Shown here piece after piece: positions 41,322-64,000 of a DNA stretch of 64,000 nt (positions within the stretch are counted from its first letter, which is position 1; each line of letters begins with the position of its first letter). Under the pieces are notes generated by a model. That model was not told the DNA's origin. It did not search any database and saw nothing but the letters and a program-made list of their open reading frames with translations. This stretch comes from a virus (taxonomy: Duplodnaviria > Caudoviricetes), in the IMG/VR virus record IMGVR_UViG_3300028591_000129, positions 1-64,000 of that record. The stretch is one strand, 5' to 3'. The translations under genes were made by a program, and so were the position numbers.

Positions 41322-41427
41322 ATCTGTTTCTCCTTTCTATGAGTTTCTATTTGCACTTATAAGGTAACATAGTAAGTATAGTTTGTCAAGCATAAATTTA
41401 GGACAGCTTTTGACTGCCCTAAAAGTC

Positions 41428-48671: not shown

Positions 48672-49352
48672 TTAACGCTTCCAAAAAGCTATAAGCGGTT
48701 CTGTATCTACCTCGGGGAATGTCACGCGCTCGACCTTGCAACCTGTCTTGATTATTGCTTCCCCTATGCTCAACGTTTCCGCGCCTGCAATACCTAAAAT
48801 AACTCTGCTCTCTGATACTGAAGAAACGGGGACGGATACACGTGTATCAAGGTTACACTTCAAACGTGTTGGGATAACCTCTGCATTGATATTCTGTGTT
48901 GCACAGATTAACTGCACCCCTGCCGCACGTGCTATGCGTGCCAAACGCTCTAATAACTCAAAAGCTCTTTTACTTGTAAACGCAATGTCTGCAAGCTCGT
49001 CAACGATTATATAAAGCTTCGTGCCTGTATACTTGCGCGCGCCTGCTTGTTCCATTTCGCGGTAGCGATAGTCTACGAGTGCCAAGCACTTATTAAGCAA
49101 TGCCTCTATGTCCTCGGGCTCTGTCGCGTAGCCTGCGCAATGCGCTGTATGCTTAAAACGGCTCAACTCAACGCGCTTAGGGTCTATCAAAACCATTTGA
49201 CATTCTGCGGGGTTATGAGTGAGAATGTCATATATGATATTCTCAAGAAAAGTTGACTTTCCGCTTCCTGACGCGCCCGCGATTAATGCGTGGTGTGCGC
49301 TTGCTGTGATTGCTGAAAAGACGGGGTTTCTGTTGATTGTCATTGTTGCCAT
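48672..49352 (-). CDS. FtsK/SpoIIIE-family ATPase (motor domain only)
   Basis: HALIAGASGSGKS, LIDPKRVEL, IIVDELAD, ARAAGVQLICATQ, GAETL. Confidence 0.9.
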   Translation of the reverse strand: MATMTINRNPVFSAITASAHHALIAGASGSGKSTFLENIIYDILTHNPAECQMVLIDPKRVELSRFKHTAHCAGYATEPEDIEALLNKCLALVDYRYREMEQAGARKYTGTKLYIIVDELADIAFTSKRAFELLERLARIARAAGVQLICATQNINAEVIPTRLKCNLDTRVSVPVSSVSESRVILGIAGAETLSIGEAIIKTGCKVERVTFPEVDTEPLIAFWKR

Positions 49353-49669
49353 TGCTTACACCCCCTCTCTAATTGCCTTGATAGCCTTAATGTATCCCTC
49401 AACCTGCGAAACTGTCAGATAGTGACCAAAGCGGTTTAACAGCTCTGTTGCCTTGTCTGCGTCCCTAAACAGCTTAATCTGATTGTCGAGTAATACCCTA
49501 ATGTCTGCGGGGTTTATTCTTGTGTCTTTCATAGTGTTTTACCTCTTTGCTTTCTATGAGTTTTCGTGGGGAATTGCTCGGTATCCCCTACTAATAGTAT
49601 ACGCCTCTCTTCCTTATTTGTACATACCACTTTTCTAAACAAAAAGTTCAATATAGCTTAACTTGTATA

Positions 49670-49776
49670 TGTCCCATTAATGGGGCACTTCCGTGCAACG
49701 GTTAGCACTGGCTAACTGATATGTCCTATTATTGGGATACAGAACAAACACGGCAAGCTGTCCCATTATACGGACA
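49670..49776. promoter_or_regulatory. Three copies of an 18-bp palindromic operator-like box TGTCC-N8-GGACA
   Basis: 49670, 49722, 49759; further copies at 56375, 57518, 58442. Confidence 0.65.
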
Positions 49777-50815
49777 CACTGTAATTGTCAAAACGACTTG
49801 ACACCCCTGCCCCTCAAAAATATTTTTCTGTCGGAGCTGACCCCCTGCCCTCGCGCGCACGCCTGCACGGGCGCATTCGCACGCTCGGAACTGCTGACCA
49901 AACCACAGCAAAAAGTTCGTTGCGAACTACACACTCCCCGTGACTGCGTTGGACTGCCCGCCTGCTGTCTGTTCTCTGCTGTCGGATATTCACTGCAAAA
50001 TAAAAGACACCTGCCGTGTTAGCAAGTGCCCTTTACTGCCTGTCTATACTGTCCGTATTACGCGTTATATATCGGTAGGCTTTCCTCTGCGATTACGCGA
50101 TACTTGCCGTGTATAATATCCTCTATTGTCTCTATATCGACGCCCCACGCGTCAGCTACGAAACGACGGCAAGTCTTATAGTTATTCTCTAATATCCTGC
50201 ATATAGCGCCATAGTTGTATTCGTCCTCGGGGCGCTGTTCAAGACGTGTCTCCATATCCTGCCACTGCTCGCGAAGTCTGCGAAGCTCGTTATAGATTGC
50301 TGTCTCTGCGTTATTAAGTACGATAATATCTGTATACATAATTATGTCTCCTGTCAATAATGTTGAGTATCGTTTGGCTCGGAATGTCAGCGCGGTCAGA
50401 CCATACGCCAACCGCACCAATATGCCTCGTTGTATCCGTCCACGAAAGCGTCCTCAAGGCTCTCCTCGCCCATTGCAAGCTCGCGCTCTGTAAAGTCGAG
50501 CACTCTCTGCTGAAAAGCAAGCTGTGCCTCATAGTATCTGTCCATTGCTTCCTCGAATGTAACCTGTGCGAATGTAACCTTTGCCATTGTTCTAATCTCC
50601 TTTATATGAGTTTTATGAGTGTTAGCACCTAACGTGCTTGTAAGTATAGTATATACCACATAGGATAAAATGCAATACATTTTTTCACATTTTCCAAAAA
50701 TTCTTTTTACCCGTCCTGACTGCCTACTCTCCAATCAAAACAAAACACCGATAATCTCGGTATCTTCAGGTGTCAGCTACACCTCTTTTCGTTGGTTTGG
50801 TATTTACAACGAGCA

Positions 50816-50870
50816 AAAATGTCAATCTGAAATTGACGTATCTAAAATGTCAATCTGAAATTGACGTATC
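50816..50870. repeat. 27-bp tandem direct repeat with internal palindrome
   Basis: AAAATGTCAATCTGAAATTGACGTATC at 50816-50842 and 50844-50870. Confidence 0.9.
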
Positions 50871-51799
50871 AGTGCGCGTGCCTGCCTGAAGAGTTCACAA
50901 TAGCCACCAACCGCCGACGAAATGCGGAAGCTACACGTCGTGCTGTGCGCACTCGGCTGTCCTGTCCGCCTGTCACTGAAGCATACAAAAAGGGGCGCTG
51001 TACACGCCCCCTGTCTGCTGTCCTGCGCTGTCCTTAATTCAGATACAGCACACGCCCTGTTACTGTCTTTACTCGTGACGGTTCACCGTGGAAATATCCA
51101 ACGACTGCCACATAGGAATTAACGATACCGTTAACTGTGCCCTCTTCGTAGTACTTGATAAGCTCTTCGTACTGTCTGCGCTTTACTTCCTGAAGTTCCA
51201 TTGCCTTGATAATGCTCGTTGTCATATTACTTCTCTCCTCTCTTCATTCTCTCGATAATTTCTGCCTTAACAAGCTCGTAGTCCTCGCACCTGTCCTCGT
51301 CAACGGGATTGAAATTGTTTACGTACCACAGAAAACGCTCCATAAGCTGTTCTGCCGTGTCTTTCTGAATGATTGCCTTATGTGTTGCTCTTCTCTCGTC
51401 TGTCATATGCTTATACCCCCTTTGTATACTCGCGAATTAAATATGCCTTATGTATCTGAATAGCGATACGCTTTGCCTGACGAAGCTGTGCTTCTGTAAG
51501 CTCGCGTCCTGCCTGTACTCTCTTTGCGAAAGAATGAACGTACTCGTATCCAATATATGTGTATACGGGTGCAACGTTATCAGCGGGAACGTTAACGCCT
51601 GCAAGCTCTGCGAGAAGCTCTGCCTCATTGGCGTAGATAGCTGTCCACTTTACGGGCTTCAAGCCCTCGCCATACTGTGCCTCTGTCTCTCTGCAAATTC
51701 TCTGTGCTTCATTAATAGTCATAATCAAATCTCCTGTCTATGAGTTTTCCGAACTGTGATTATAGATTAACATATCTCGTGGTAAATACAATAGGTTTA

Positions 51800-51827
51800 T
51801 GTTACAGTAATGTTACAAACAGATTAC
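51800..51827 (-). promoter_or_regulatory. 11-bp-period direct-repeat box TGTAAH-N5-TGTAAC (one of 7 sites)
   Basis: Also at 53079, 55441, 59377, 60303 (inverted), 60832, 63847; each just upstream of a promoter. Confidence 0.7.
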
Positions 51828-52402
51828 AAACGAGAGCAACAGGTTGACAACTACTTCAGAAGTCATTCGTCCTTCGCTCGGTCAGCTACATTCATTTTTG
51901 CCTCGAAGCAGACCTCTCGGCTTTCCTCTACTCGGCTCGGAAAACCTGCAAACCCCTGAAAACACTGCATTTGCAGGCAAATCAGCCCTCAAGTCAGCTC
52001 ACAGGCTGTGCGGAAGCTACACTCACGCCTCGTGCCTGCGATTGGCGCGTACCAAGAATGTCTGCAATAGAAAAACGGGAACTGTGCCCCGCTTCTCCTG
52101 TCGTGCTGTATGCTATGTTCTCGGACTTAACTTCTCATAGCACACGCCCAATTGACGGCGTCTCGTGCCATACCGTATTCCTTGCCTGTCAACCACACGA
52201 TACCTCGTGCGTCTCTGCCCATAAAGACGTCGAGCAAGTCTCCAAGGTCATTAATGAGCTTCTCGTACCTCTCGTCCTCTTCAGCAGTAAGCGTGCCGTT
52301 GAACGCCTTGTCAGAACGCTCATTCATAGCACGATTACGTCTGAATATAATGTCGTGCGCGTGCTTCTCTACGTTGAACGGATACCTCTTCTGTGCCATA
52401 AC

Positions 52403-52789
52403 TTATACCCCCTTTACAAGCTCGCAATTAGCAACGTTAATCTTACCGCCCTCTACGAAGTAAGCATATGTTGCTACCCAACGTCCATATCTGTCATTGA
52501 AGTCACAAATCTTACGAACTGTACCTATGAAGCCGTGCTCGATTGTTCTGCCCTTAACAACACGGACTGTATCTCCCTCAAGAATGATACCGCGAGAGTG
52601 CAGGAAAGCTCTGCGTGCTTCCTCGTTAATCTCCATATAGTACAGCTCGTCATTATCGTGTGAACCGTCAGCATAATCATAATCTCTAACACAACAGGAA
52701 TTAACCTCGTTAGTTACAGGATTATAGAAAGTTGCTGTAACGAATGTTCCGCCCTCGTGGGATACCTTATAGAACTTATTCTCTAACAT
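52403..52789 (-). CDS. Hypothetical protein with KOW/SH3-like C-terminus
   Basis: EGDTVRVVKGR...GTV. Confidence 0.55.
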   Translation of the reverse strand: MLENKFYKVSHEGGTFVTATFYNPVTNEVNSCCVRDYDYADGSHDNDELYYMEINEEARRAFLHSRGIILEGDTVRVVKGRTIEHGFIGTVRKICDFNDRYGRWVATYAYFVEGGKINVANCELVKGV

Positions 52790-53289
52790 TTGCTTTACCC
52801 CCTTATGCACGTTTAACACCGACGACTACTCCGTTTACCTCACGCTCGTCCATAACGTCGTCGTAACAGGACGTTGCAACGGCTACTTCCATAGCGGAAA
52901 CCGTAGCATTTCCACAAATAGCTACTGCGAGCCATCTTTCGACCTCAACCTCTTCTACGTAATTGGATACTGTGTACTTGAACATAATCAAAATCTCCTT
53001 TGCTTGTTATGAGTGTTCTGCACTTCCGTGCTTGTGAGTATAGATTATCACATTTCGTAGTGATTACAATGCCCTTTATGTTACAAATATGTTACAAAAC
53101 TGCACCAAATCGACAGCTCCGAGCGCCATTCAAAAGCTACACTCGCCCCAAAAATCACAGAAAATACCAAAAAGTGCCTCGAAAGCGGGCGGTCAGCTAC
53201 ACCTGTTTTTGCTCCGAGACGAATTGATGACAAACAAAAAGACGGAAGTTGTATCCGCCTCTCTGCATATATAGGAGATTTTAGATTGA

Positions 53290-53916
53290 TTACTCTGACT
53301 TTACTCTCTTCGCTGTTGCCTCTCTGTAATAGTTGTTGATATTGTCCTTGTCGCCTGTCTCAAGTTCGTCAGTGAACGGCATTCCTTTAACGTTTGTTCC
53401 GTTAACTCGTCTGTTGTCTCCGAAGCCCTGCACGGTCAATGTCTTGAACTCGCCTTTCCAATTCTGAACGATAATTCTGTCGCCCTTTTTAAGGTCTGCT
53501 GTCGGTACGTCTTCTGCGTGCCAATATTCTGCACCAATAGGGCGTGCCTGTCTCTCGTCGATAGCCTCAAGCATTTCGTTAAGCTCGTATGTATCCTGCT
53601 CTATTCCACGGAAATACTCGCGCCCTGTGATTTTCCACCCCTCGACAATGTATGTTCCGTTGTCGCCGTTGTCAGTGTCAAGTCTGTCCAATGTGTCGAT
53701 ACCTACGGAAAGTCCGTCGTCTCCGAAGAAGTTAGCGATAACCTGTGCAAGTCTTGCGAAGCCGTAGCAGTCTGTATCAGGTGCACGGAAACCTCTTATC
53801 TCGCAATACTTCAGGAAAGCTTCTACGCTGTCCCTGCCACCATTCCAATGAAGATAGATACCAATACCGTTATTCTCGAAGTTCTCACGTGTTGTTATAA
53901 CTGCTCTGTTGCCCAT
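53290..53916 (-). CDS. Hypothetical phage protein
   Basis: MGNRAVIT...IYLHWNGG...DNGTY; SD GAGGAGG. Confidence 0.7.
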   Translation of the reverse strand: MGNRAVITTRENFENNGIGIYLHWNGGRDSVEAFLKYCEIRGFRAPDTDCYGFARLAQVIANFFGDDGLSVGIDTLDRLDTDNGDNGTYIVEGWKITGREYFRGIEQDTYELNEMLEAIDERQARPIGAEYWHAEDVPTADLKKGDRIIVQNWKGEFKTLTVQGFGDNRRVNGTNVKGMPFTDELETGDKDNINNYYREATAKRVKSE

Positions 53917-56900
53917 TATCTTATACCTCCTCAAAGCTTGCTACTCTTGTTAAGTGGTTGTGATTTCCGCCTGTATACACCGTTGCGTGGTGCTCTTTTG
54001 CGTACTTAATAGCTGTATCCTCTTCCCATACATATGCGTGAACTGTCGCGTCCTTTGAGCTTCCTACCAAGAACCAATAACCATACATATAATAGTTATC
54101 GCGCCAGTCCTCAATGGAAAGATAGTGGTGCTTGTGTGTTACCATTCTGTCTGCTGTACTCATTGATAAAATCTCCTTTTGCTTGTTATGAGTTTTCCAA
54201 ATTGTGATTATACAATAGCAAAGTATTTACCACCTGTCAAGCATTATTTTCACATTTTCAGAAAAATAATTAAAAATACTACCGAACTCAACAAAGACGG
54301 GAGCTACAACTGTTTTAGATTGTTTGGTATTTACTGCTCGGCTCACCTGTCAGACAGTACCAAGGAAACCACTGCAAACTCCAACCACTGCCGACATTCA
54401 GCGCTTCCGAGAAGCTACACACTGTCGGTGGTCGGCGGGCTGTGCGCGTTTTCCTGCGCGACAAAAGGGCGGGATTTGTCGTCCCGTCCCTCTGTCATAA
54501 ATATAGGAGATTTCGCGTAGATTGTCTTAATGAATACGAACTAAAAGCTCCGCTTCAATTGCTGTCAGAATTCTATTCAAGTCCTTGTATCTGTCACTGT
54601 CTTGATGGTGAATGTATTCACGTGACGCGCGGGCTGAATAGTCCCTGTGGTAACTTAACAGGCGGGCGCTGTCAAGCTCTCTGCACTTTGCTGTTATCTC
54701 ATTAATATCAGTCAACATATTTTCACCCCTCTCTTAATTGTAATACCAAACGATATACTTGCTTTCTGTAACACGTCCCTGCGCGTCTCTCGCTTCCCAC
54801 GGTGTATAGTGGGCGGGTTTATGTGTCCTGATATATCTCGTGCAATGCGCGTTAATTCTGATAACCTCTGCGCGTGCCTCTCTTTCCGTGTCCGCGAATT
54901 CAAAAGTAAGTCTGTAACGTCCTCTCATTGTCAATCCTCCTCTACTGCCTTTCTGATAAGCTCCTGCTCTTCAAGCGTGATTAAGCCAAGAAGATACAGA
55001 ATATGTGTTGCACCCTTTGCCTGCTCCTGCACTTTAGTGTCGTCCCCAAGTGCGATACAGTTACGCAAATATCTGCGAAGCTCTCTGTTATCCTTACCAA
55101 GTCTCTCAACTGTCTCAAGCGCCTGTAAATACTCGTTCATTGTGTTTGTTCCTTTCTATGAGTGTTTATGCGATAAGCTCTGCGGGTGTTCCTAACAGCT
55201 CTGCTGTTCTTTCCTTGCTATATGTGAAAAGGTCGAAGAAATCTTCACTTGTGATAGCCTTATCATTAGCGATAGCCTGCAAAATGTCCATTACCTGACA
55301 GTTGCTTGTTGCTACTGCGATTAAAACCTTGTACATTCTTGCCTTTGTCATTTCCCCGTCCTGCCTTTCTATGAGTTTTCCTTTGTTAAGTATAGAATAT
55401 CACTTTCGGTGGTAAATACAATACCCCTTTAGCTGTTTTATGTTACAGTTGTGTTACAAACAGATTACACTGTCAATCTGCTCTTGACACCGCAGGCAAC
55501 AGGTGGCACTGTCAGCTACACCCGTTTTTGCTCTGAAACTGCTCCTCTCCGCCTGCTTCTGTCTACCGTCAGCTAACAGCAAAACGGCGGAAATGCCTGA
55601 TATTACTGCGTTTCAGCCTGTCCGTCAGCCCAACCGAACCACAGCAGACCGAGCTCCTCGCGCGAAGCTACACTTCGTGGGTGCGGAATTCGGGCATACA
55701 AAAAGCGGTCTGTGTGACCGCCTCTGCTTATTCTTCCTCGTCGGGAACTGCTATCTGTACCACTCGACCGTTCCACCAAACCTCTTTGCCTGTGACCTCT
55801 TCAAACATAAACACACAAGTCATAAAACGCTCGTGTACACGGTGCGCAATGTCTGTAAGGGATACTTCACACGCCTCAAGATACTCGCTGTAAAGCTCAT
55901 TCAGATAATCCAAAGACTTCTTCTCGTATTCTGTCAACTCTGCCATACTTGCACCCCCTCACTCTACGACAAACCTAACAACTACTCCGTCGTCCTCGTC
56001 TAACCACTCTTCCACAAAACCGTTATCCTCTCCGTCGTACTGCCAAGAATACGTTGTATCTATGACGTCGTCCTCTCTCCAAAGCTCAATCTGCATATCA
56101 GGTGCACTCTCCATATATTCGCTGTACTTCTCATAAAGACGGATTGCTTCCTTTACAGACTTCGCACGAACTACTTCGTCCATAACCTCGGCAAGTGTCA
56201 TAGTATTTGACGCCTCACCGCAGTACTTGTCCCAAGCTCGCTCTACCATTAAATCGTAATTGTCGTAAACGTACATTTTGAAATCTCCTTTGCTTGTTAT
56301 GAGTGTTTAAACTGTACTTACATTATATCACTTCCAATAGTGAATACAACCCCTAATTTACACTTTTTCCAAACTGTCCCATTAATCGGACTTTCTCGCG
56401 GAGCTACACCGTGTCGGTCTGTGCGTGGTTGGTCGGGGCTGTCAGAATTCGGGCATATTAAAAGGGCGGTTACTGTCCGCCCCTTATGTTATCAGTAGTG
56501 ATTGTATCCTGCTTCTGTGTGCTCTCTTGCAATCTGTACAACCTTTCTTGGATAATCGCCGTTAGGATAATATCTCTTAACCTGTGCGGGTCTTGCTATG
56601 AGCTTTGTGATAATGTCGTTTGTTGTGTTGTTGTAAACTATGATAATTCCGTTATCTGTCAGCTCGTGTCTCTCTAATCCGTGCCAATGTCCTCTGTCTA
56701 CGTAGAACTTGCCTATAACGTTTCCCTGTCCGAGGTACTTAATGAGCTCTTCGCGGTACTGTCTATCGTTCATATAGTGTCTGCTAACTGCCATTGTCTT
56801 TTCCCCCTTATGAGTGTTTTGAGCGATACCCTGTATCTGATTATAGAATATCACCTTTGGTGGTATTTACAATAGGTAAATCGTAGTGTTCACAATTCGT

Positions 56901-57038
56901 TAACATTTGCCAACTCTCCCTGTCACCACGGTGCGAAAAGGTCAGCTACACCTGAATTCTGCTGTGGGTTTGCGGGCATAATAAAACGCCCCTGTTAAGG
57001 GACGTCTTACCTCTGCTGTCAATGTGCCGTGTGCCCTA

Positions 57039-57407
57039 TTATGCTACCCCCTCAAGCTTGATAGTTGCGGACAGTTTGCAAAGGTTGTTATAGTTCTTCT
57101 TGGTTACTGTCTCACCAATTACCTCTGAGCTCTCCTGTATTACTCTATAACAGCCCGACTCCAAAGGATAAAGAGTGTTAACAATATGCACGGGCTTGTG
57201 CACCTCTGTGATTGTGCCGTTCTCTCTGACGTACTCAGAGGCATATCTGATTTTGTGCTGTGTATATGTGCCGTCCTCGTGCTTGATATTCTTGATAAGT
57301 GCCTTTTCGCTCCAAAGTACATAATACTCAACGTCAAATCTGAAAGAGCCGTACTTCTTAGCCTCTGTATCCCACTTAATAGCCTTTTCTCTTGTAATGC
57401 TTGCCAT
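57039..57407 (-). CDS. Hypothetical protein
   Basis: Single-gene cassette with promoter, SD and terminator. Confidence 0.7.
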   Translation of the reverse strand: MASITREKAIKWDTEAKKYGSFRFDVEYYVLWSEKALIKNIKHEDGTYTQHKIRYASEYVRENGTITEVHKPVHIVNTLYPLESGCYRVIQESSEVIGETVTKKNYNNLCKLSATIKLEGVA

Positions 57408-58011
57408 TGTTCTAATCTCCTTTATATGAGTTTTATGAGTGTGTACCTATTGGGTACGATATGAGTATATACCACTATGCAATTCAATGCAAGCCCTTTT
57501 TTGAATATTTTTTCAGGTGTCCCATTATTCGGACAGTTTGCGAAGCTACACCGAGGCGGTTAAAAAGCGGGATTGCTCCCGCCTTGTGGTCACGCCTCTT
57601 CGTGCTCGATAAAGGCTCGAAGAATTGTGTCGCCTGCTACCTCTGCGTTCTGCCTTATCTGCTCGTCTGTAAGCTCGTTGTATTCCATTGACAATCTGAT
57701 AAGCTCAACTGCACGTTCTACCAACTGCTCGTGTGTTGCGTTGCGTGTGTCTGTCATACCTTGCACCCCCTTATGCTGTAAGCTCGTTGTATCTGTTCTT
57801 GAGTACGTCTACGCGGTATCTTGCCTGATTTGCGTAGTCCTCGTCGCCGTAATTGTTGATACGGATATTGTATACCTCGGTGTAATAGCGGATTTCTCGC
57901 CTAATCTCGCGTGTGTCTGTCATAGCATTAACACGGGCATTGATTACTTCTCTATATCCTGCGGGTACATAATAGTTAACGTTCATTTTCTTTCGTCCTT
58001 TCTATGAGTGT

Positions 58012-58326
58012 TTATGCAACCTTTTTAGGCTGTGTGCCAAGCTCTACCGTCTGCTCGTATGTGAAGAAAGACGTTGCGAAGTATCCGCGTGCTTTCTTGG
58101 GAGCTAAAAGGTCAATCTGTGCAACGTGTGTCTCGTCGTGTCTTACTTCACGTCCTACGAGTGTCCAACCATACCACGTTCTAACTTCGCCGTATGTGTC
58201 GCGGATTTCTGCTACTGCCTTTGCGTCTACCCAAGCAAGGTGCAGGCAGTTAGCGAATGTGCCATAGCGTCCGCTTCTGTATGCCTCGTGTGCCTTTTTC
58301 ATAATAAGCTTCTTGTCGTATCTCAT
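58012..58326 (-). CDS. ArdC-N-like ssDNA-binding small protein (tentative)
   Basis: TWYGWTLVGREVRHDE...FFTYEQT resembles the T..W...G..V..GE...F...QT signature. Confidence 0.45.
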   Translation of the reverse strand: MRYDKKLIMKKAHEAYRSGRYGTFANCLHLAWVDAKAVAEIRDTYGEVRTWYGWTLVGREVRHDETHVAQIDLLAPKKARGYFATSFFTYEQTVELGTQPKKVA

Positions 58327-58783
58327 TGCTAAAATCTCCGTTCTATGAGTGCGTCAAGTTATCTAACTTGCACCTTAAGTATATCGAAGTACTTACCACT
58401 TGTCAACACTATTTTTAATAATTTTCCAAAGTCGCGCAAAGTGTCCCAATAATCGGACAGTTTTCAGAAGCTACACTGCGTGATATTTCGCAGAAATGGC
58501 TCGGGGAGCTACACCTGTTTTCCTGCTGAAACGGAACTGCATTAGAAAAGGTGGGCTTGTCAACCCACCCTGTATGCAAGGTACTCGGTATTCCCTACCG
58601 TGCCACCGTACATTCCTGTACGTCCTCGTTTTAGCTTGTATCCGACGTATTCTGTGACCTCGTCAAGCCCTTTGCAGTATATCTCAGGCGCGTTCTCTAA
58701 CGCCTGCATATATGCGTCCCTGTCCATTCCTTTAGTAAGCTCAACTTTCTTTACTGCGTAGATATTCATATACTGACACCCCC

Positions 58784-59302
58784 TTATGCTGTCTTTCCAT
58801 TAACGGGCTCTTTAAGGAACTTCTTGAGCTGTCGCGCTGTCTTGAAGCCGTCGAACTTAAGTCCTGCAAGCTCTGTAAGTTTTACGTCTTCCTTATACAG
58901 AATATCCCAATAGGTGTAATCTGTTGTGAATGACCTGTACAAGAAGTCGCAACCCTCGGGAGAATAACCTGTCTCTGTCTCCATTGTATGCGCCCACATA
59001 CCGTTAGCACAACCGCTGACGCCTACCTTGAAGCAGACATAGCCTGTGAAGCCAAGCTCGATAGCTGTCTCCAAGAACTGCCTCATTTGGTAAAGCCTTG
59101 TCAGTGACAGCTTGTCAATCCACCAATCGAAGATTGACAACTCTTTGCACACCTCGCGCATTTCAAAGTACAACGGTGTATAATACTTGCGCTCGCAGTA
59201 AGACATATTGTCCCAATTAGCCTTTCTCTCCTCAAGAATAAAGATACGCTCGTTTACCCTTGCCAATACTTCCTGTGCGTTCTTGTCTGAATACTTACCC
59301 AT
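58784..59302 (-). CDS. Hypothetical protein
   Basis: 172-aa ORF with promoter and SD. Confidence 0.7.
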   Translation of the reverse strand: MGKYSDKNAQEVLARVNERIFILEERKANWDNMSYCERKYYTPLYFEMREVCKELSIFDWWIDKLSLTRLYQMRQFLETAIELGFTGYVCFKVGVSGCANGMWAHTMETETGYSPEGCDFLYRSFTTDYTYWDILYKEDVKLTELAGLKFDGFKTARQLKKFLKEPVNGKTA

Positions 59303-61135
59303 TGATTTAATCTCCTTTACTGTTTATGAGTTTGTTTTACTGTACCCATATTATAGCGCGTACTACCCGCCCTGTGTGTTACAGTTGTGTTACAAACACA
59401 TTACAGCGCGGACAGCCACGGCGAGCCCCAACCCCCGACGGGCACGCACCGCGGAGCGGTTGGTGTAGCCACCTCGCAGGGGCAAAGAAAAACGGGGTGA
59501 ACCCCCGCTTCTCAACCGTCTGCCCACTCTCGGGCTTCCTTTAGATTGTCCTGATACTCGTCAGCAGTAATCGGTAAGCTTACCGTGTAAATCGGGCTTC
59601 CGTCTGTCCAATCGTAAATCGCGGTGACTGTGCACCCGATAGACTGAAAAGCACACGCGACCTCGTCCCCATAGGTAGTCAACCCGTAATCGGACACTAT
59701 TTTGTTAATGTAGGTCGCTACGTTACTCTCGTCTATGCCCCAATCACTCCACTGTACCCTGCCTGCAACTTCCCTGATATTATCCGCTGTCAACATATCG
59801 TCTACCCCCTCAACGCTCTATACCTGCAAGCTCGTCATACCTCGCGTCTGCCAAGCACTGCCAACGCTTGATAGTATGGTCAGAGTGAACGTTCTTAACG
59901 AGCTTCCTGACGTCGTCATAGAATGTATCAACATTAGTAAGCGTATTGAGCTTGTCAATTCTCTTATAGTCGTTTCTTTCCATTGCGTAATCGTATGTCA
60001 TTTTGTTTTACCCCCTTAAATAAGCTTCCAACCGATACCCTGTGTCTTATACGCGATACCGCAGTAATCGAGAACCTTTACAACGTCAGAATTGATTGTC
60101 GTGGTCTGCTCGCCACGGTAAATATCCACTAACTCGTAGATACCATAAGGAGTAATACTGATACCCCTTACAGCGTGACCGTCCATAAGTGCGTTGATAA
60201 CATTTGCTAACTTTTCCATACTGAAATCTCCTTTGTATGAGTTTTAAAATTGTGCCTTTAGTTTATCACGGTGGTATTCACATTGCAAGCGATTTCACGT
60301 TTTGTAACCTGTTTGTAACATTCAGTCAGGGGCGTCGGTGGCTTCTCTGAAGCTACACCTCGCGGGTCGTGTGGTCGGCTGTGCTCGGGGCATAAGAAAA
60401 GGGGCTTCCTGCCCCTTAATCCCACTCAAGATATACGTCAGTGATATGTTCGTTGTCGACCCCCATACATTCTCGACAGTACCGCTTAGCCTGCCTGCTA
60501 CTCACTGCTCTGCACCTGTAATGATAATGAATTCCGCACACGACGTATACGACACAATACGGCTTTAACTGCATACTCACACCCCCTCTATTCTGATAAT
60601 GTCTTCCTTGCCAACAGTCTTATAGTTGTATCTGTCAACCTTGAAGTAATACAAGCTTGTTCCGTCAGGAATGAAATAGCTTATTGCGTGAAGCTTACGC
60701 TCAAAATCAACGCAAGTATAGGGACTTGTGAAGTGTCTTTCTCTGTAAATAACTGTCATACCGATAATCTCCTTTACGTGTTATGAGTTTTCTTAATGTG
60801 CCCACAGTATAGCATATGTGACTGCTCCGTAGGTTACAGCTGTGTTACAAACAGGTTACAAAAGCAAGCTCGAAGTTGACAGCTCCGAATCAACGAGTCG
60901 GCAGAAGCGAGCTTTCAGCTACACCCCAAAAATAGCAAAAGTTGCTCCAAGGTCAGTATTCCGACTGCGGGATTAGCGGTTTCCTGCACGGAAGCAATGG
61001 TTTTATCGGTGCTCGGGTCTCTACTCGCTTATAACACGTCTTACCGTAGCCCAATATCCGTGCTTCCTCGTTCTTCAGCCTGCGCCCACAGCGCAAACAG
61101 TACTTGTACTCTTTCATTCCTGCCTGCCCCTTATA

Positions 61136-62059
61136 TTAGAATATATGCGACAGTGCGTATTCCACTGCCACAGCGTCGTCTACTTCTCCTGTCTTTATCC
61201 CTTTCTCTACTGCCTGCAACACCTTAAGAAACTGCACAAGGTCAGCTCCGCCCCAAAAGCCCAAGTTCTTCTTCGCGCACTTCACGTCCCACTGCGACAG
61301 CCCCGTTGTAGCGCACACGTCACTGCTTGCACACGTCTGCACCTGTAAAACACGCTTCATATTGGTATAAAGTACGCTAATTAGCCTTAAAGACGGCTCT
61401 CCTATCGCCTTGCAGTCCTCTAAAAGCATATATGCTCGATATGGGTCAGCTCTCAACACTGCGTCAGTAAATGCGAAGATAGCGTCAGTCGGTGGTCGGT
61501 GTATCGTACCGTCCTCAACCAATCGGGAAAACGCTTCGTCAGGAGCTACATTCGTTTCTTGTGTGTACTGCTGTACCTTGTCTATCTCTAAAAGAATTCG
61601 TCCGTAGTTTTGCTCGCACAGCATAATTAACTGCTCGGTGTGCTCGTCAGATAGTGAAATCTCCTTTTGCACGTACTTATACAACACGTCAACGTCCATA
61701 TAATTAAATGTAACTACCTTATCCTTGAAGAAATTATAGAATTTTGTACGCTTATCTACCGTGGTTATCTGAAAAATGAGCATTTTATCACCTAAAAGGG
61801 CGTCTATCTCGTCCCACGCGTTCTCTGCCTGCATAAATTCCTTGTCGTCGCGCACAACATACAGTGTCGGTCTCGGTATCAAACCCGTCCTTTTACGTAG
61901 GGCGAAAGCTACACTATCTGTGCGTTCCACGGTGCGACCTGTGACCTCGGCGATTTTGTTAATGTATATACGCTGTGCCTCTATCTCGTCCCCTGTAAAT
62001 ATATAAAATGGGTCAAGATTTTTACCCATAATCTGCTTTTTTACGGCGTTAATCTCCAT
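61136..62059 (-). CDS. DNA polymerase III delta (HolA)-like clamp-loader subunit
   Basis: PFYIFTGDE, DKRTKFY, LEIDK, IFAFTDAV, IKTG; 307 aa. Confidence 0.8.
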   Translation of the reverse strand: MEINAVKKQIMGKNLDPFYIFTGDEIEAQRIYINKIAEVTGRTVERTDSVAFALRKRTGLIPRPTLYVVRDDKEFMQAENAWDEIDALLGDKMLIFQITTVDKRTKFYNFFKDKVVTFNYMDVDVLYKYVQKEISLSDEHTEQLIMLCEQNYGRILLEIDKVQQYTQETNVAPDEAFSRLVEDGTIHRPPTDAIFAFTDAVLRADPYRAYMLLEDCKAIGEPSLRLISVLYTNMKRVLQVQTCASSDVCATTGLSQWDVKCAKKNLGFWGGADLVQFLKVLQAVEKGIKTGEVDDAVAVEYALSHIF

Positions 62060-62069
62060 AGAACTTCTC

Positions 62070-62735
62070 CTACTCGAACTCTTTGTAATTTTTCATTCTC
62101 GAACCACAGAAAGAACAGTACCGCAGATAATATCCCGTTACGAGGCTGTCACTGTTGTACGCCGAATTACGACAGTTAGAACACCTCAAACGGTATCTGT
62201 CACGCCCCACAGCGGTTGTTTTGGACTGCACAAGCCACATACCGTCCCGAGTACCGTCGTCAGCTTTCAACGCTAAAATAGCCCTGTTTACGGCTGTCTC
62301 AAGGTTACTTCCGCGATGTATGCTCCGCTTCAGGTACTTCAAACATACAATTGCTTCTTCATTCGTCATCTCATTCATTGATTCGTCTCCCTGCGTCGGG
62401 CGGGGAGCTACACCCGCTTTTTCACAAAAGTTCTCCTTTGAGGACTTCCTGCTACTTCTTATGTTCGTTCCGCGTATAGTGGATATTGCGTCTGAAAATT
62501 CCCGTACCTCACGGTCAACCTCACCGTCAGCTTCATAATTCTCCTGTCGGTCAGGGCTGTCAGACACCGTATCCTCATTATCTGCCTCAACCTCTGCCAA
62601 TAGCACGTCAGGAATACCTAATGCTTCCTTTGCGTCAGACACGAACTGTCCAAATAGTTCTAATAAACGTCCCCAACTGTCTATTAAGGTACGTAAATCA
62701 AGCTCAACCGAACTCTCTTCTTTCTTATCTGCCAC
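62070..62735 (-). CDS. Hypothetical protein; C-terminal half is a MTNEEAI/Zn-ribbon family member
   Basis: MTNEEAI...AILALK...CSNC...YCSFCGSRM; may start internally. Confidence 0.5.
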   Translation of the reverse strand: MADKKEESSVELDLRTLIDSWGRLLELFGQFVSDAKEALGIPDVLLAEVEADNEDTVSDSPDRQENYEADGEVDREVREFSDAISTIRGTNIRSSRKSSKENFCEKAGVAPRPTQGDESMNEMTNEEAIVCLKYLKRSIHRGSNLETAVNRAILALKADDGTRDGMWLVQSKTTAVGRDRYRLRCSNCRNSAYNSDSLVTGYYLRYCSFCGSRMKNYKEFE

Positions 62736-63052
62736 GTCCTCACTCTCCTCTCCTCGTTATCATATCTTTCCTCGGCTACCCGTCCTCGGCAGTCAGCTTC
62801 TCCTTACTCACGCGCACACGCGTATCCTACGGTCTGCCACCCACAGGGTCAGCTTCCAAAAATTTTTCCTATCCGCACCCCGATTAATGTAGTTTTCCGC
62901 CAACTACTCGTCGGGTACTACCTCATATTCCAAGTACTCGGGGCACAGCCTCGCCATATCAGTGTATGCCTCATAACAGTTATCCCTAAACTGACATGCG
63001 TCACACCCTGAATTCTTGGTGGGGTCGCGTGCACTGTCAGAACTTGCCATAG

Positions 63053-63532
63053 TCAGCTCGCTCTCCTTAATACAAGATTGCCGTCCTCGGACTTCAGGGT
63101 ATACTTCGGATTATTCTCAAGGAACAGCTTGAACTGTCGAAGCAGATTATCCGCACCATTCACGAAAATATCTCTATCCGTAATAGTGAAACCCTCACCG
63201 TCGGCATAATACAGGAAGTCGTCGTATGTGCTATCCATTTTAACACCGCCTGTCTTTGCAAGCCAATAACGGATTACGTACTCCTGTCTGTCTCTGTAAT
63301 TGTCACGCCAAAGGAATTCTGCATTACCGATATGAAGCTCATTCGTCAGCGCACTTGCCTGCTCGGTATACTCTGCAATCTTCTTACTTCCTCGCTCTGT
63401 ATTGATTTCAGGCTCAAGATACAGGTATACTTGATTATTCTCTGCACGCAAAACAGGGAAGAAGCACGCGTCTGTCTTCGCTGTCCACTCGTTTATCTGC
63501 CTATCAAGCTCTCTGCACTCCAATATGGTCAT
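63053..63532 (-). CDS. Hypothetical protein
   Basis: 159-aa ORF coupled to upstream gene. Confidence 0.65.
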   Translation of the reverse strand: MTILECRELDRQINEWTAKTDACFFPVLRAENNQVYLYLEPEINTERGSKKIAEYTEQASALTNELHIGNAEFLWRDNYRDRQEYVIRYWLAKTGGVKMDSTYDDFLYYADGEGFTITDRDIFVNGADNLLRQFKLFLENNPKYTLKSEDGNLVLRRAS

Positions 63533-63777
63533 ACATTCACCCCCTCGGGGATATTCTCGTACATTGCCATACGAAGAATGTCCCTATCCTCAAATGAGAT
63601 TGCTCCTGCATAATAAAGTGCCTGTGTGAAGCCTCTGAAGTACTCCTCGGATAACTTACACGCCTCGTCCTTTGCGTGCGTGCGTACAAGTGCATTTCTG
63701 AATGCCTTACGGTCAAGTGTTGCATTGTCTGCACACGCTCTGTCAATAATCTCAAGTGCTCTCTCAAAATTTGTCAT
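63529..63777 (-). CDS. Hypothetical protein
   Basis: Promoter, ACTCATA leader and SD upstream. Confidence 0.65.
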   Translation of the reverse strand: MTNFERALEIIDRACADNATLDRKAFRNALVRTHAKDEACKLSEEYFRGFTQALYYAGAISFEDRDILRMAMYENIPEGVNV

Positions 63778-64000
63778 AGTTTTAATCTCCTTTGTATGAG
63801 TTTCTAATTTGATAGTTATATACTACCACAGAATTCACCACTGCAATGTTACAGTTATGTTACAAAGTCAGTCGCCCTCGCGACGATACGGATAATGCAC
63901 GTCATAGTAAGTATCAAAGAACGGCTGAAAGTCATAATCATAATATACACGCCTCTTGTGACCCCCGATAGTGTAGCTTCCCGCAAGCTCCGCGTCATAC

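Follow-up and report, generated by a model that had tools for sequence, protein, structure and literature searches.

A strand-polarised octamer recurs between the accessory-gene cassettes of a Caudoviricetes genome: a candidate transcription-boundary box

The DNA analysed here, referred to as the window, is the first 64,000 nucleotides of the virus record IMGVR_UViG_3300028591_000129 (Caudoviricetes), which has 104,810 bp in total and is rated 100% complete in IMG/VR. In the right part of the window, an array of small accessory-gene cassettes is marked by 17 exact + strand copies of the octamer AGCTACAC, all within 50775–62413. Practically all of the genes were placed on the - strand by a crude map of open reading frames (ORFs), and the GC skew is negative throughout; read with transcription, the word is therefore GTGTAGCT, hereafter the box, with TGTAG as its core. 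Since nearly all the genes lie on the - strand, the apparent strand polarity of the octamer amounts to co-orientation with transcription. We favor, with a probability of about 0.4, the reading of GTGTAGCT as a polar transcription-boundary box, similar to the stoperators of mycobacteriophages and embedded in spacers that resemble the promoter-early stem-loop (PeSL) cassettes of T4-type phages.

RESULTS

Distribution and orientation of the box

An earlier note, made from the letters of the window alone, had reported the 17 copies, one inverted copy at 63971 and none in the first 50 kb, in excess of chance. All 17 were found at the positions given. The inverted copy was also present, and three more were detected to the right of the window, so that the whole record holds four - strand copies (63971, 64624, 71654, and 75607) and not a single + strand copy beyond the array. 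By comparison, in 100 dinucleotide shuffles of the window the octamer was present 2.41 times on average and 7 times at most, both strands summed. The near-copies reported at 51884 (ATGTAGCT) and 54302 (TTGTAGCT) proved real, and to these we added a degenerate copy at 49925 (GTGTAGTT), all three on the gene strand, as well as an inverted copy at 59463 that matches at seven of the eight positions.

As the same note had said, most of the copies lie in spacers, often two in each. Fifteen of the 17 exact copies have a stop codon or an intrinsic terminator on one side and the next sigma-A-like promoter on the other, and six spacers hold two boxes, near-copies included. The flanks fall into two classes: in class A the box comes after the terminator, in many cases with a C-rich, G-poor tract ahead of it (..ccgaccaccgacaNGTGTAGCTtc), and in class B it is part of a 29-nt consensus, GTYTCRGAGCAAAAACRGGTGTAGCTGAC. 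The box is the most widespread spacer-specific word and the sole element common to both classes. Because all 17 copies are exact at 8/8 positions while their flanks belong to two unrelated contexts, the octamer itself is under selection. The array and its sites, from right to left, are as follows.

50588–62450, - strand: accessory-gene array of ~13 small ORFan mini-operons, with composite spacers of 180–450 bp
63971–63978, + strand: first inverted copy to the right of the array
62406–62413, - strand: box in a class B-like context, aaaagcggGTGTAGCTcccc; the ATG at 62378 follows 28 nt downstream, and no terminator precedes the box
61907–61914, - strand: box inside the clamp-loader delta ORF (codons Ser-Val-Ala)
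60917–60924, - strand: class B box, 28 nt past a stop codon and without a hairpin terminator; the next leader box is 135 nt downstream
60351–60358, - strand: class A box, 33 nt past the T-run of a terminator
59463–59470, + strand: inverted 7/8 copy (GTGTAGCC on the + strand, ggtgGCTACACcaacc on the gene strand), after the sole array terminator that lacks a forward box
58507–58514, - strand: class B box, 27 nt past a terminator
58469–58476, - strand: class A box, 65 nt past a terminator and 10 nt before the palindromic operator GTCCGATTATTGGGAC
57544–57551, - strand: class A box, 8 nt past a terminator
56944–56951, - strand: box 26 nt past a terminator; upstream boundary of the one-gene cassette 56794–56492
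56402–56409, - strand: class A box, 46 nt past a terminator; downstream boundary of the same cassette
55666–55673, - strand: class A box, 22 nt past a terminator
55514–55521, - strand: class B box (gcaaaaacggGTGTAGCTgac), 144 nt upstream of a leader box
54413–54420, - strand: class A box, with the C-rich tract ccgaccaccgaca before it
54302–54309, - strand: near-copy TTGTAGCT in a class B context
53195–53202, - strand: class B box, 28 nt past a terminator
53135–53142, - strand: second box of the same spacer, 88 nt past the terminator
52015–52022, - strand: class A box, 43 nt past a terminator
51884–51891, - strand: near-copy ATGTAGCT in a class B context
50929–50936, - strand: class A box, 46 nt past a terminator
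50775–50782, - strand: class B box, with GGTGT/ACACC formed around AGCTG
49925–49932, - strand: degenerate copy GTGTAGTT, 66 nt past the terminator of the last spacer

The copy inside the clamp-loader gene is probably a coding coincidence. The box at 62406 is in the loop of a GCGGG/CCCGC hairpin and belongs either to the 5' region of the next gene or to a longer ORF; together with the one at 60917, it lies between genes without a hairpin terminator.

When the shorter word TGTAGCT was followed along the record, 20 gene-strand copies were found at 50.7–62.4 kb, plus one at 67.7 kb, and six copies on the + strand, all at 63.9–75.6 kb. Two or three of these six are in spacers, where the gene-strand reading is AGCTACACCAA. 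The arrows thus diverge from ~63 kb, an apparent switch of polarity that could come from chance plus context or from a DNA-level process centred there. On inspection of 62.4–64.0 kb for an origin or terminus, no repeats or AT-rich features were seen, and nothing origin-like.

Composition of the spacers

Each mini-operon consists of one to four small ORFs, and none of the cassette proteins gave an informative family match. Following the direction of transcription, the spacers present a stop codon, an intrinsic terminator, one or two boxes, operator-like repeats (either TGTAACA direct repeats or the palindrome GTCCGATTAATGGGAC), a sigma-A-like promoter (TTGnnn-17-TATAnT), an ACTCATA leader box, the ribosome-binding site (RBS) in AAAGGAGA, and the ATG. 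The link between terminator and box is tight. TGTAGCT lies 8–46 nt past the T-run at 10 of the 11 sense-strand terminator-like sites of the array, and at the eleventh the inverted 7/8 copy takes the place of the forward box. After the other sense-strand terminator-like sites, those outside the array, no box was found (0 of 10–11). The promoter-proximal box, always upstream of the -35 element, lies 84–161 nt from the leader box (104–145 nt in 9 of 11 spacers).

Several other elements of the spacers are repeated as well. The ACTCATA box (aaaACTCATAgaAAGGAGA) occurs between the -10 element and the RBS at nearly every sigma-A-like promoter of the genome (40 copies on the gene strand vs. seven on the other), for example, on the - strand at 60782–60788, 54187–54193, 41338–41344, and 158–164 of the window, and is a conserved 5'-leader element. 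TGTTACA/TGTAACA direct-repeat boxes, inverted once, lie upstream of seven cassette promoters (51796–51852, 53075–53098, 55437–55493, 59373–59429, 60300–60320, and 60828–60884); their half-site TGTAAC is one base away from TGTAGC of the box, yet it is not purged from the ORFs. The palindromic operator GTCCCATTAATCGGAC/GGGAC adjoins several promoters both inside and outside the array (49669–49780, 56374–56396, 57517–57539, and 58441–58463 of the window; ~66.6 and ~97.3 kb of the record).

Exclusion of the core from ORFs

The frequency of the core in genes was evaluated on the 142 ORFs outside the array by shuffling synonymous codons, with protein sequences and codon usage preserved. Sense TGTAG was observed 7 times against 63.1 ± 7.2 expected (z -7.8), and antisense CTACA 10 times against 64.6 ± 7.1 (z -7.7), whereas the control words TGTAC, TGTAA, and CGTAG were at expectation. 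No depletion was seen when the same null was applied to the genes of a Lachnospiraceae metagenome-assembled genome (MAG; 139 observed vs. 136 expected), and in the loci of more distant relatives the ratios were mostly ~0.9 to 1.6, although CTACA fell to 0.53 in one locus and reached 2.1 in a second. A generic codon effect was rejected on the basis of these control words and genomes.

The core is one of many words that this phage avoids. GATC, CTAG, and GGCC are absent from the whole record and CATG is present twice, while CCWGG, CCGG, GCWGC, GGWCC, CTNAG, GANTC, CCTTC/GAAGG, GGATG, and GCATC are strongly depleted; TGTAG/CTACA is eighth among the depleted pentamers (28 observed vs. 107 expected outside the array). 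The phage nonetheless encodes a glucosyltransferase and an N6/N4 DNA methyltransferase. The array could be regarded as naive or foreign DNA, less purged than the remainder, but this was rejected because all the other avoided words stay purged there. It holds 25 of the 53 genomic copies of TGTAG (31 gene-strand copies and 22 copies on the opposite strand), compared with 1 of 46 for GAAGG, 0 of 34 for GCGGC, and 0 of 8 for GGATG. From the codon shuffles and these counts it follows that a pentamer excluded from ORFs is retained at the cassette junctions as a perfect octamer in one orientation.

Conservation in relatives

Homologues of the clamp-loader delta protein at 72–76% identity were found in ENA and Logan assemblies, one of them on a 110-kb contig; in IMG/VR, GenBank phages, and JGI metagenomes nothing was closer than 58%. 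A megablast of 50–64 kb against GenBank phages and a single-protein scan of IMG/VR returned no match, scans for DNA patterns (the class B consensus, the leader box, and, in JGI metagenomes, a 21-nt class B pattern) gave chance single matches only, and the octamer was above chance in 0 of 54 IMG/VR loci.

The nearest relative read (G001; 51 kb, 58% clamp-loader identity) keeps a core-only version of the spacer grammar. There, (gtcG)TGTAG lies 4–29 nt past 11 of 17 sense-strand terminators and past 0 of 7 on the other strand, its 3' flanks vary, and the spacers cannot be aligned with those of the phage studied here. Its ORFs are also depleted in TGTAG (16 vs. 41 expected, z -4.7) and CTACA (24 vs. 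45, z -3.4). In addition, the two phages share a cassette. The 100-aa ORF at 56794–56492 has a 48%-identical homologue in G001, and in both phages the cassette is a single gene laid out as box and promoter followed by terminator and box, with 542 and 548 nt from box to box and unrelated neighbors.

Given the depletion in ORFs, the conserved grammar, and this shared, bounded cassette, the original observation is confirmed and is stronger than first stated.

A second relative (G002, the record of L035; 70 kb, 50% identity) showed few long spacers and no obvious cassette array in the 21 kb examined, and it has no spacer copies of TGTAG. Sense TGTAG is nevertheless depleted in its ORFs (11 vs. 51 expected, z -7.2), whereas CTACA is at or above expectation, with 68 antisense copies, and CTACAC is enriched (24 vs. 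10.4, z +4.4). The gene strand of G002 carries two copies of GTGTAG against 29 on the opposite strand, a single-orientation pattern like that of the EcoP15I sites of T7, and in a third relative (G003, 22 kb) the word occurs 12 times in one orientation and once in the other. The exclusion of the sense word, seen in this phage and in G001 and G002, is thus a shared trait of the sub-clade, with the same GTGTAG skew in G003; in the relatives, depletion in ORFs is greatest on the sense strand or limited to it. In the more distant relative L040 (14219–20911), a different word, GGCTGGTACCTACC, follows terminators in both orientations, ahead of the promoter GCCTGTTGTATAATGTT.

Search for a reader and rejected identities

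In Pfam and PHROG scans of ORFs of at least 48 aa, no helix-turn-helix (HTH) protein, repressor, or other DNA-binding family was found, nor any sigma factor, RNA polymerase, RNase, recombinase, or integrase. The scans did find a small NUMOD4+HNH nuclease, the N6/N4 DNA methyltransferase, PARG, radical-SAM, and DnaB-like proteins. An ORFan reader would be compatible with this outcome.

No discussion of the octamer was found in the phage or bacterial literature searched. Several familiar identities do not fit. A structured RNA or tRNA-like element was rejected: no Rfam match was found at E≤1 in 49000–64000, and 18 folded sites showed no shared structure, the motif being about as unpaired as its flanks. 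The word fits no -10, extended -10, or -35 spacing of the sigma-A-type promoters of the genome. Four of seven class B copies resemble weak + strand terminators, but their stems are not conserved and the octamer is left unexplained. Integrons pair an integrase with attC sites, whose imperfect inverted repeats carry RYYYAAC/GTTRRRY cores; here the boxes are direct, no integrase was found, and the cassettes own their promoters.

Genomic setting

Siphophages of Clostridia and other Firmicutes have portal, tape-measure, and tail proteins similar to those encoded here, and relatives of the clamp-loader delta protein are on contigs binned with sheep/rumen Lachnospiraceae and Ruminococcaceae MAGs. Following transcription, the array is preceded by replication genes, a split PolA, the glucosyltransferase, a sliding clamp, terS, terL, a Cas4-like exonuclease, and the clamp-loader delta gene, and is followed by an FtsK-like ATPase, a Ro/TROVE-like protein, ADP-ribosyltransferases, and the portal and tail genes. 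The features outside the array grammar that are referred to below are these.

61136–62059, - strand: clamp-loader delta
48672–49352, - strand: FtsK/SpoIIIE-like ATPase of 226 aa, bordering the array, with motor-family matches only
86901–87341 of the record, - strand: free-standing NUMOD4 + HNH_3 endonuclease of 146 aa, the only candidate site-specific nuclease found

The 209-bp spacer between terS and terL carries three GTGTAGTTTTYC repeats, 64–66 bp apart (record positions 73510, 73574, and 73640, + strand); this triplet has a TGTAG core and is possibly a pac site or TerS-binding array. The first 126 nt of the contig (window 1–126) reappear at record positions 104665–104790, followed by 20 divergent bases, which suggests a circular or permuted assembly, though the record is classed as linear.

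DISCUSSION

The box as a polar transcription boundary

An asymmetric box is placed at the border of successive transcription units, just past each intrinsic terminator. In the mechanism that we propose, a sequence-specific factor of phage or host origin, most likely a DNA-binding protein, would read the box in the direction of transcription and, once bound, would stop or hold the RNA polymerase that had escaped the hairpin terminator. The cassettes, with their own regulated promoters, would thereby be insulated from their neighbors. The effect on transcription and the protein as reader are inferred; the position, orientation, and conservation of the box, its exclusion from ORFs, and the matching grammar of the relative were directly observed. 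In this mechanism the core would be purged from ORFs because a polar stop inside genes would be harmful, and the boxes at 60917 and 62406, which have no hairpin terminator, would be expected if the box itself is the stop.

The closest known parallel is found in the cluster A mycobacteriophages, whose stoperators (the sites of L5 gp71 and of the TipsytheTRex repressor) are asymmetric, intergenic in more than 20 copies, and oriented with transcription; inversion of the L5 site abolishes its block to elongation (PMC9283540). The 20 gene-strand copies described here, 17 exact and three near, are likewise an asymmetric, repeated intergenic site that follows transcription. There are also differences. 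Stoperators have 13 bp and are found across the genome and in promoters as well, while the box has 8 bp (core 5 bp), is placed between terminator and promoter, and does not extend beyond a single 12-kb array. The L5 site doubles as the operator of the early promoter, while the promoters of the array carry other repeats (TGTAACA and GTCCGATTAATGGGAC). The stoperators are read by a known monomeric immunity repressor, with an HTH and a second domain, in temperate actinophages, while in this phage neither integrase nor repressor was found in the scans, and the core of the box is purged from ORFs.

The spacers themselves resemble the PeSL cassettes, in which a terminator and a promoter flank the ORFans of hyperplastic regions in T4-type phages (PMC2839356, PMC4122927). 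Common to both are an ORFan hyperplastic region, a stem-loop terminator and host-type promoter for each cassette, mosaic spacers, and cassettes shared across different neighborhoods. PeSL-type exchange is recognized by indels or replacements that break in the motif when close relatives are compared, and by mini-circles; the observation here is a single cassette in common with G001, at 48% protein identity and amid unrelated neighbors. PeSL elements, however, come from myoviruses of Gram-negative hosts, recombine by homology anywhere in the motif, and have no additional conserved, oriented octamer between terminator and promoter. Composite spacers and stoperators are each already known; on our reading, a stoperator-like oriented word is combined here with PeSL-like spacers.

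Several observations weigh against the polar boundary. The family scans returned no DNA-binding reader, and five base pairs make a small core for a protein to recognize. G002 purges sense TGTAG and yet carries no spacer copies, which argues against a phage-specific repressor; because the word is purged there but not put to use, its reader may be a host or clade-conserved factor instead. In the phage studied here the antisense word is purged as strongly as the sense word, which a strictly polar stop does not need. The six inverted TGTAGCT copies at 63.9–75.6 kb are likewise left unaccounted for.

Alternative explanations

Alternatively, the box could be a site of cassette exchange, at which a nuclease, nickase, or recombinase makes recombinogenic ends at the junctions, in an enzymatic version of PeSL-type shuffling. 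Copies in ORFs would then be harmful and hence purged, and exclusion on both strands suits an enzyme that acts on double-stranded DNA. The array is similar to the hyperplastic ORFan regions of PeSL phages in its mosaic spacer modules (PMC2839356), and the cassette bounded by boxes in two phages fits such exchange. The NUMOD4+HNH nuclease and the Cas4-like exonuclease are available in the phage. However, the proteome scans returned neither an integrase nor a recombinase family, and free-standing HNH homing nucleases usually have long, unique targets. Recombination needs no tight link with terminators, no breakpoint was mapped to a box among the relatives read (at most 58% identity), and G002 purges the sense word without a cassette array. 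We regard exchange at the box as unlikely. From the earlier note, which had proposed oriented protein-binding or recombination sites such as cassette-exchange points or Chi/KOPS-like translocation signals, the part that stood is a selected, oriented site at the junctions, bounding a shared cassette on both sides; the translocation signal did not, as discussed below.

The sense-strand exclusion common to three phages, together with the 68 antisense copies that G002 tolerates, points in another direction, namely to a signal of the host read in RNA or on the non-template strand. UGUAG would be the site of an endoribonuclease, or a hairpin-independent signal for pausing or termination by the host RNA polymerase with a NusG- or Rho-type partner, that is kept out of mRNAs and destroys or stops read-through. 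The boxes come after terminators, often behind a C-rich, G-poor tract resembling a Rho loading site, no phage reader was found, and the core GTAGC is presumably shared with the ops pause element. Such a signal leaves the antisense exclusion (z -7.7) unaccounted for, and neither a conserved RNA structure nor an Rfam match was found. There was also no avoidance in the genes of the candidate host-type MAG (139 vs. 136), which may not be that of the host. On balance, a signal read at the RNA level is unlikely.

The numerous restriction-type words purged by this genome, among which the core is eighth of the pentamers, raise the question of whether the box is a by-product of restriction evasion. TGTAG would be the asymmetric site of a host Type III or IIS-like enzyme, tolerated in one orientation as in T7, where the strand bias of the EcoP15I sites evades Type III restriction (PMC3874151), and the spacer copies would be passively inherited with duplicated spacers. 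This documented orientation rule (PMC3874151) may account for the purge and for the pattern of G002; as in T7, a short asymmetric word is kept in one orientation, near-perfectly for GTGTAG in G002 and G003 (29 vs. 2 and 12 vs. 1). On the other hand, the EcoP15I sites are not enriched, positioned, or part of a longer conserved word, and evasion explains neither why the word is enriched nor why all eight letters are kept, and it leaves the constant position behind terminators in two phages unaccounted for. All the other avoided words stay purged in the array. Moreover, both orientations of TGTAG persist genome-wide, and because 31 copies are in one and 22 in the other, inverted pairs exist, which counts against evasion. 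We regard it as very unlikely to be the origin of the boxes.

The position of the promoter-proximal box, with the distances to the leader box given above, would suit an upstream activator or UP-type site, but this is highly improbable: the distances show no phasing, the class A copies keep to the terminator and not to the promoter, no promoter comes after the copy at 62406, and exclusion of the pentamer from ORFs is not expected for such a site.

Finally, a polar signal for a translocase or nuclease (AddAB/RecBCD, the FtsK-like ATPase, or the terminase), similar to Chi or to the FtsK-orienting polar sequences (KOPS) and SpoIIIE recognition sequences (SRS), is highly improbable, despite the asymmetric octamer with strand polarity, the arrows that diverge from ~63 kb (forward at 50.7–62.4 kb, inverted at 63.9–75.6 kb), and the ATPase gene at the border of the array. 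The polarity follows the gene strand, and the octamer is restricted to the spacers of one array and tied to their terminators. Chi, KOPS, and SRS are dispersed genome-wide and mostly intragenic, they are over-represented in the host chromosome, and ORFs do not exclude them. The box shares none of these traits, and exclusion from ORFs on both strands is the opposite of their behavior. Three candidate host-type MAGs showed no over-representation (62, 8, and 38 copies vs. 28, 33, and 42 for the controls), a weak test, as these MAGs may not be those of the host, and in the relative the flanks vary and conservation is limited to the 5-nt core. Chi weakens a nuclease that arrives from its 3' side, whereas KOPS and SRS are dispersed along replichores and are read by the gamma winged-helix domain of FtsK/SpoIIIE. 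The earlier note had said that the bordering ATPase lacks this domain; its 226 aa match the FtsK/SpoIIIE motor families only, no gamma-domain match was reported, and the sites are all within 12 kb.

Implications

Three properties are combined in this word: it marks nearly every junction of the array, its core is purged from ORFs with the same strictness as restriction sites, and its grammar recurs in a relative with otherwise unrelated spacers. Together they point to an undescribed reader, whether a stop factor that binds DNA, a nickase, or a host activity that pauses or cleaves, and a word of 8 bp with 20 sites is a precise handle for finding it. A more general, distinctly unlikely proposal is that TGTAG is a hairpin-independent, orientation-dependent stop or cleavage signal of the host transcription/RNA machinery, or of a clade-conserved factor, that a clade of rumen/gut Firmicutes phages purges from its genes and uses as a fail-safe insulator after terminators. 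If true, short, sequence-specific signals of a new class would mark transcription boundaries in bacteria. The word also helps to delimit accessory-gene cassettes in uncultured Firmicutes phages, cassettes that probably encode functions of host takeover or anti-defence.

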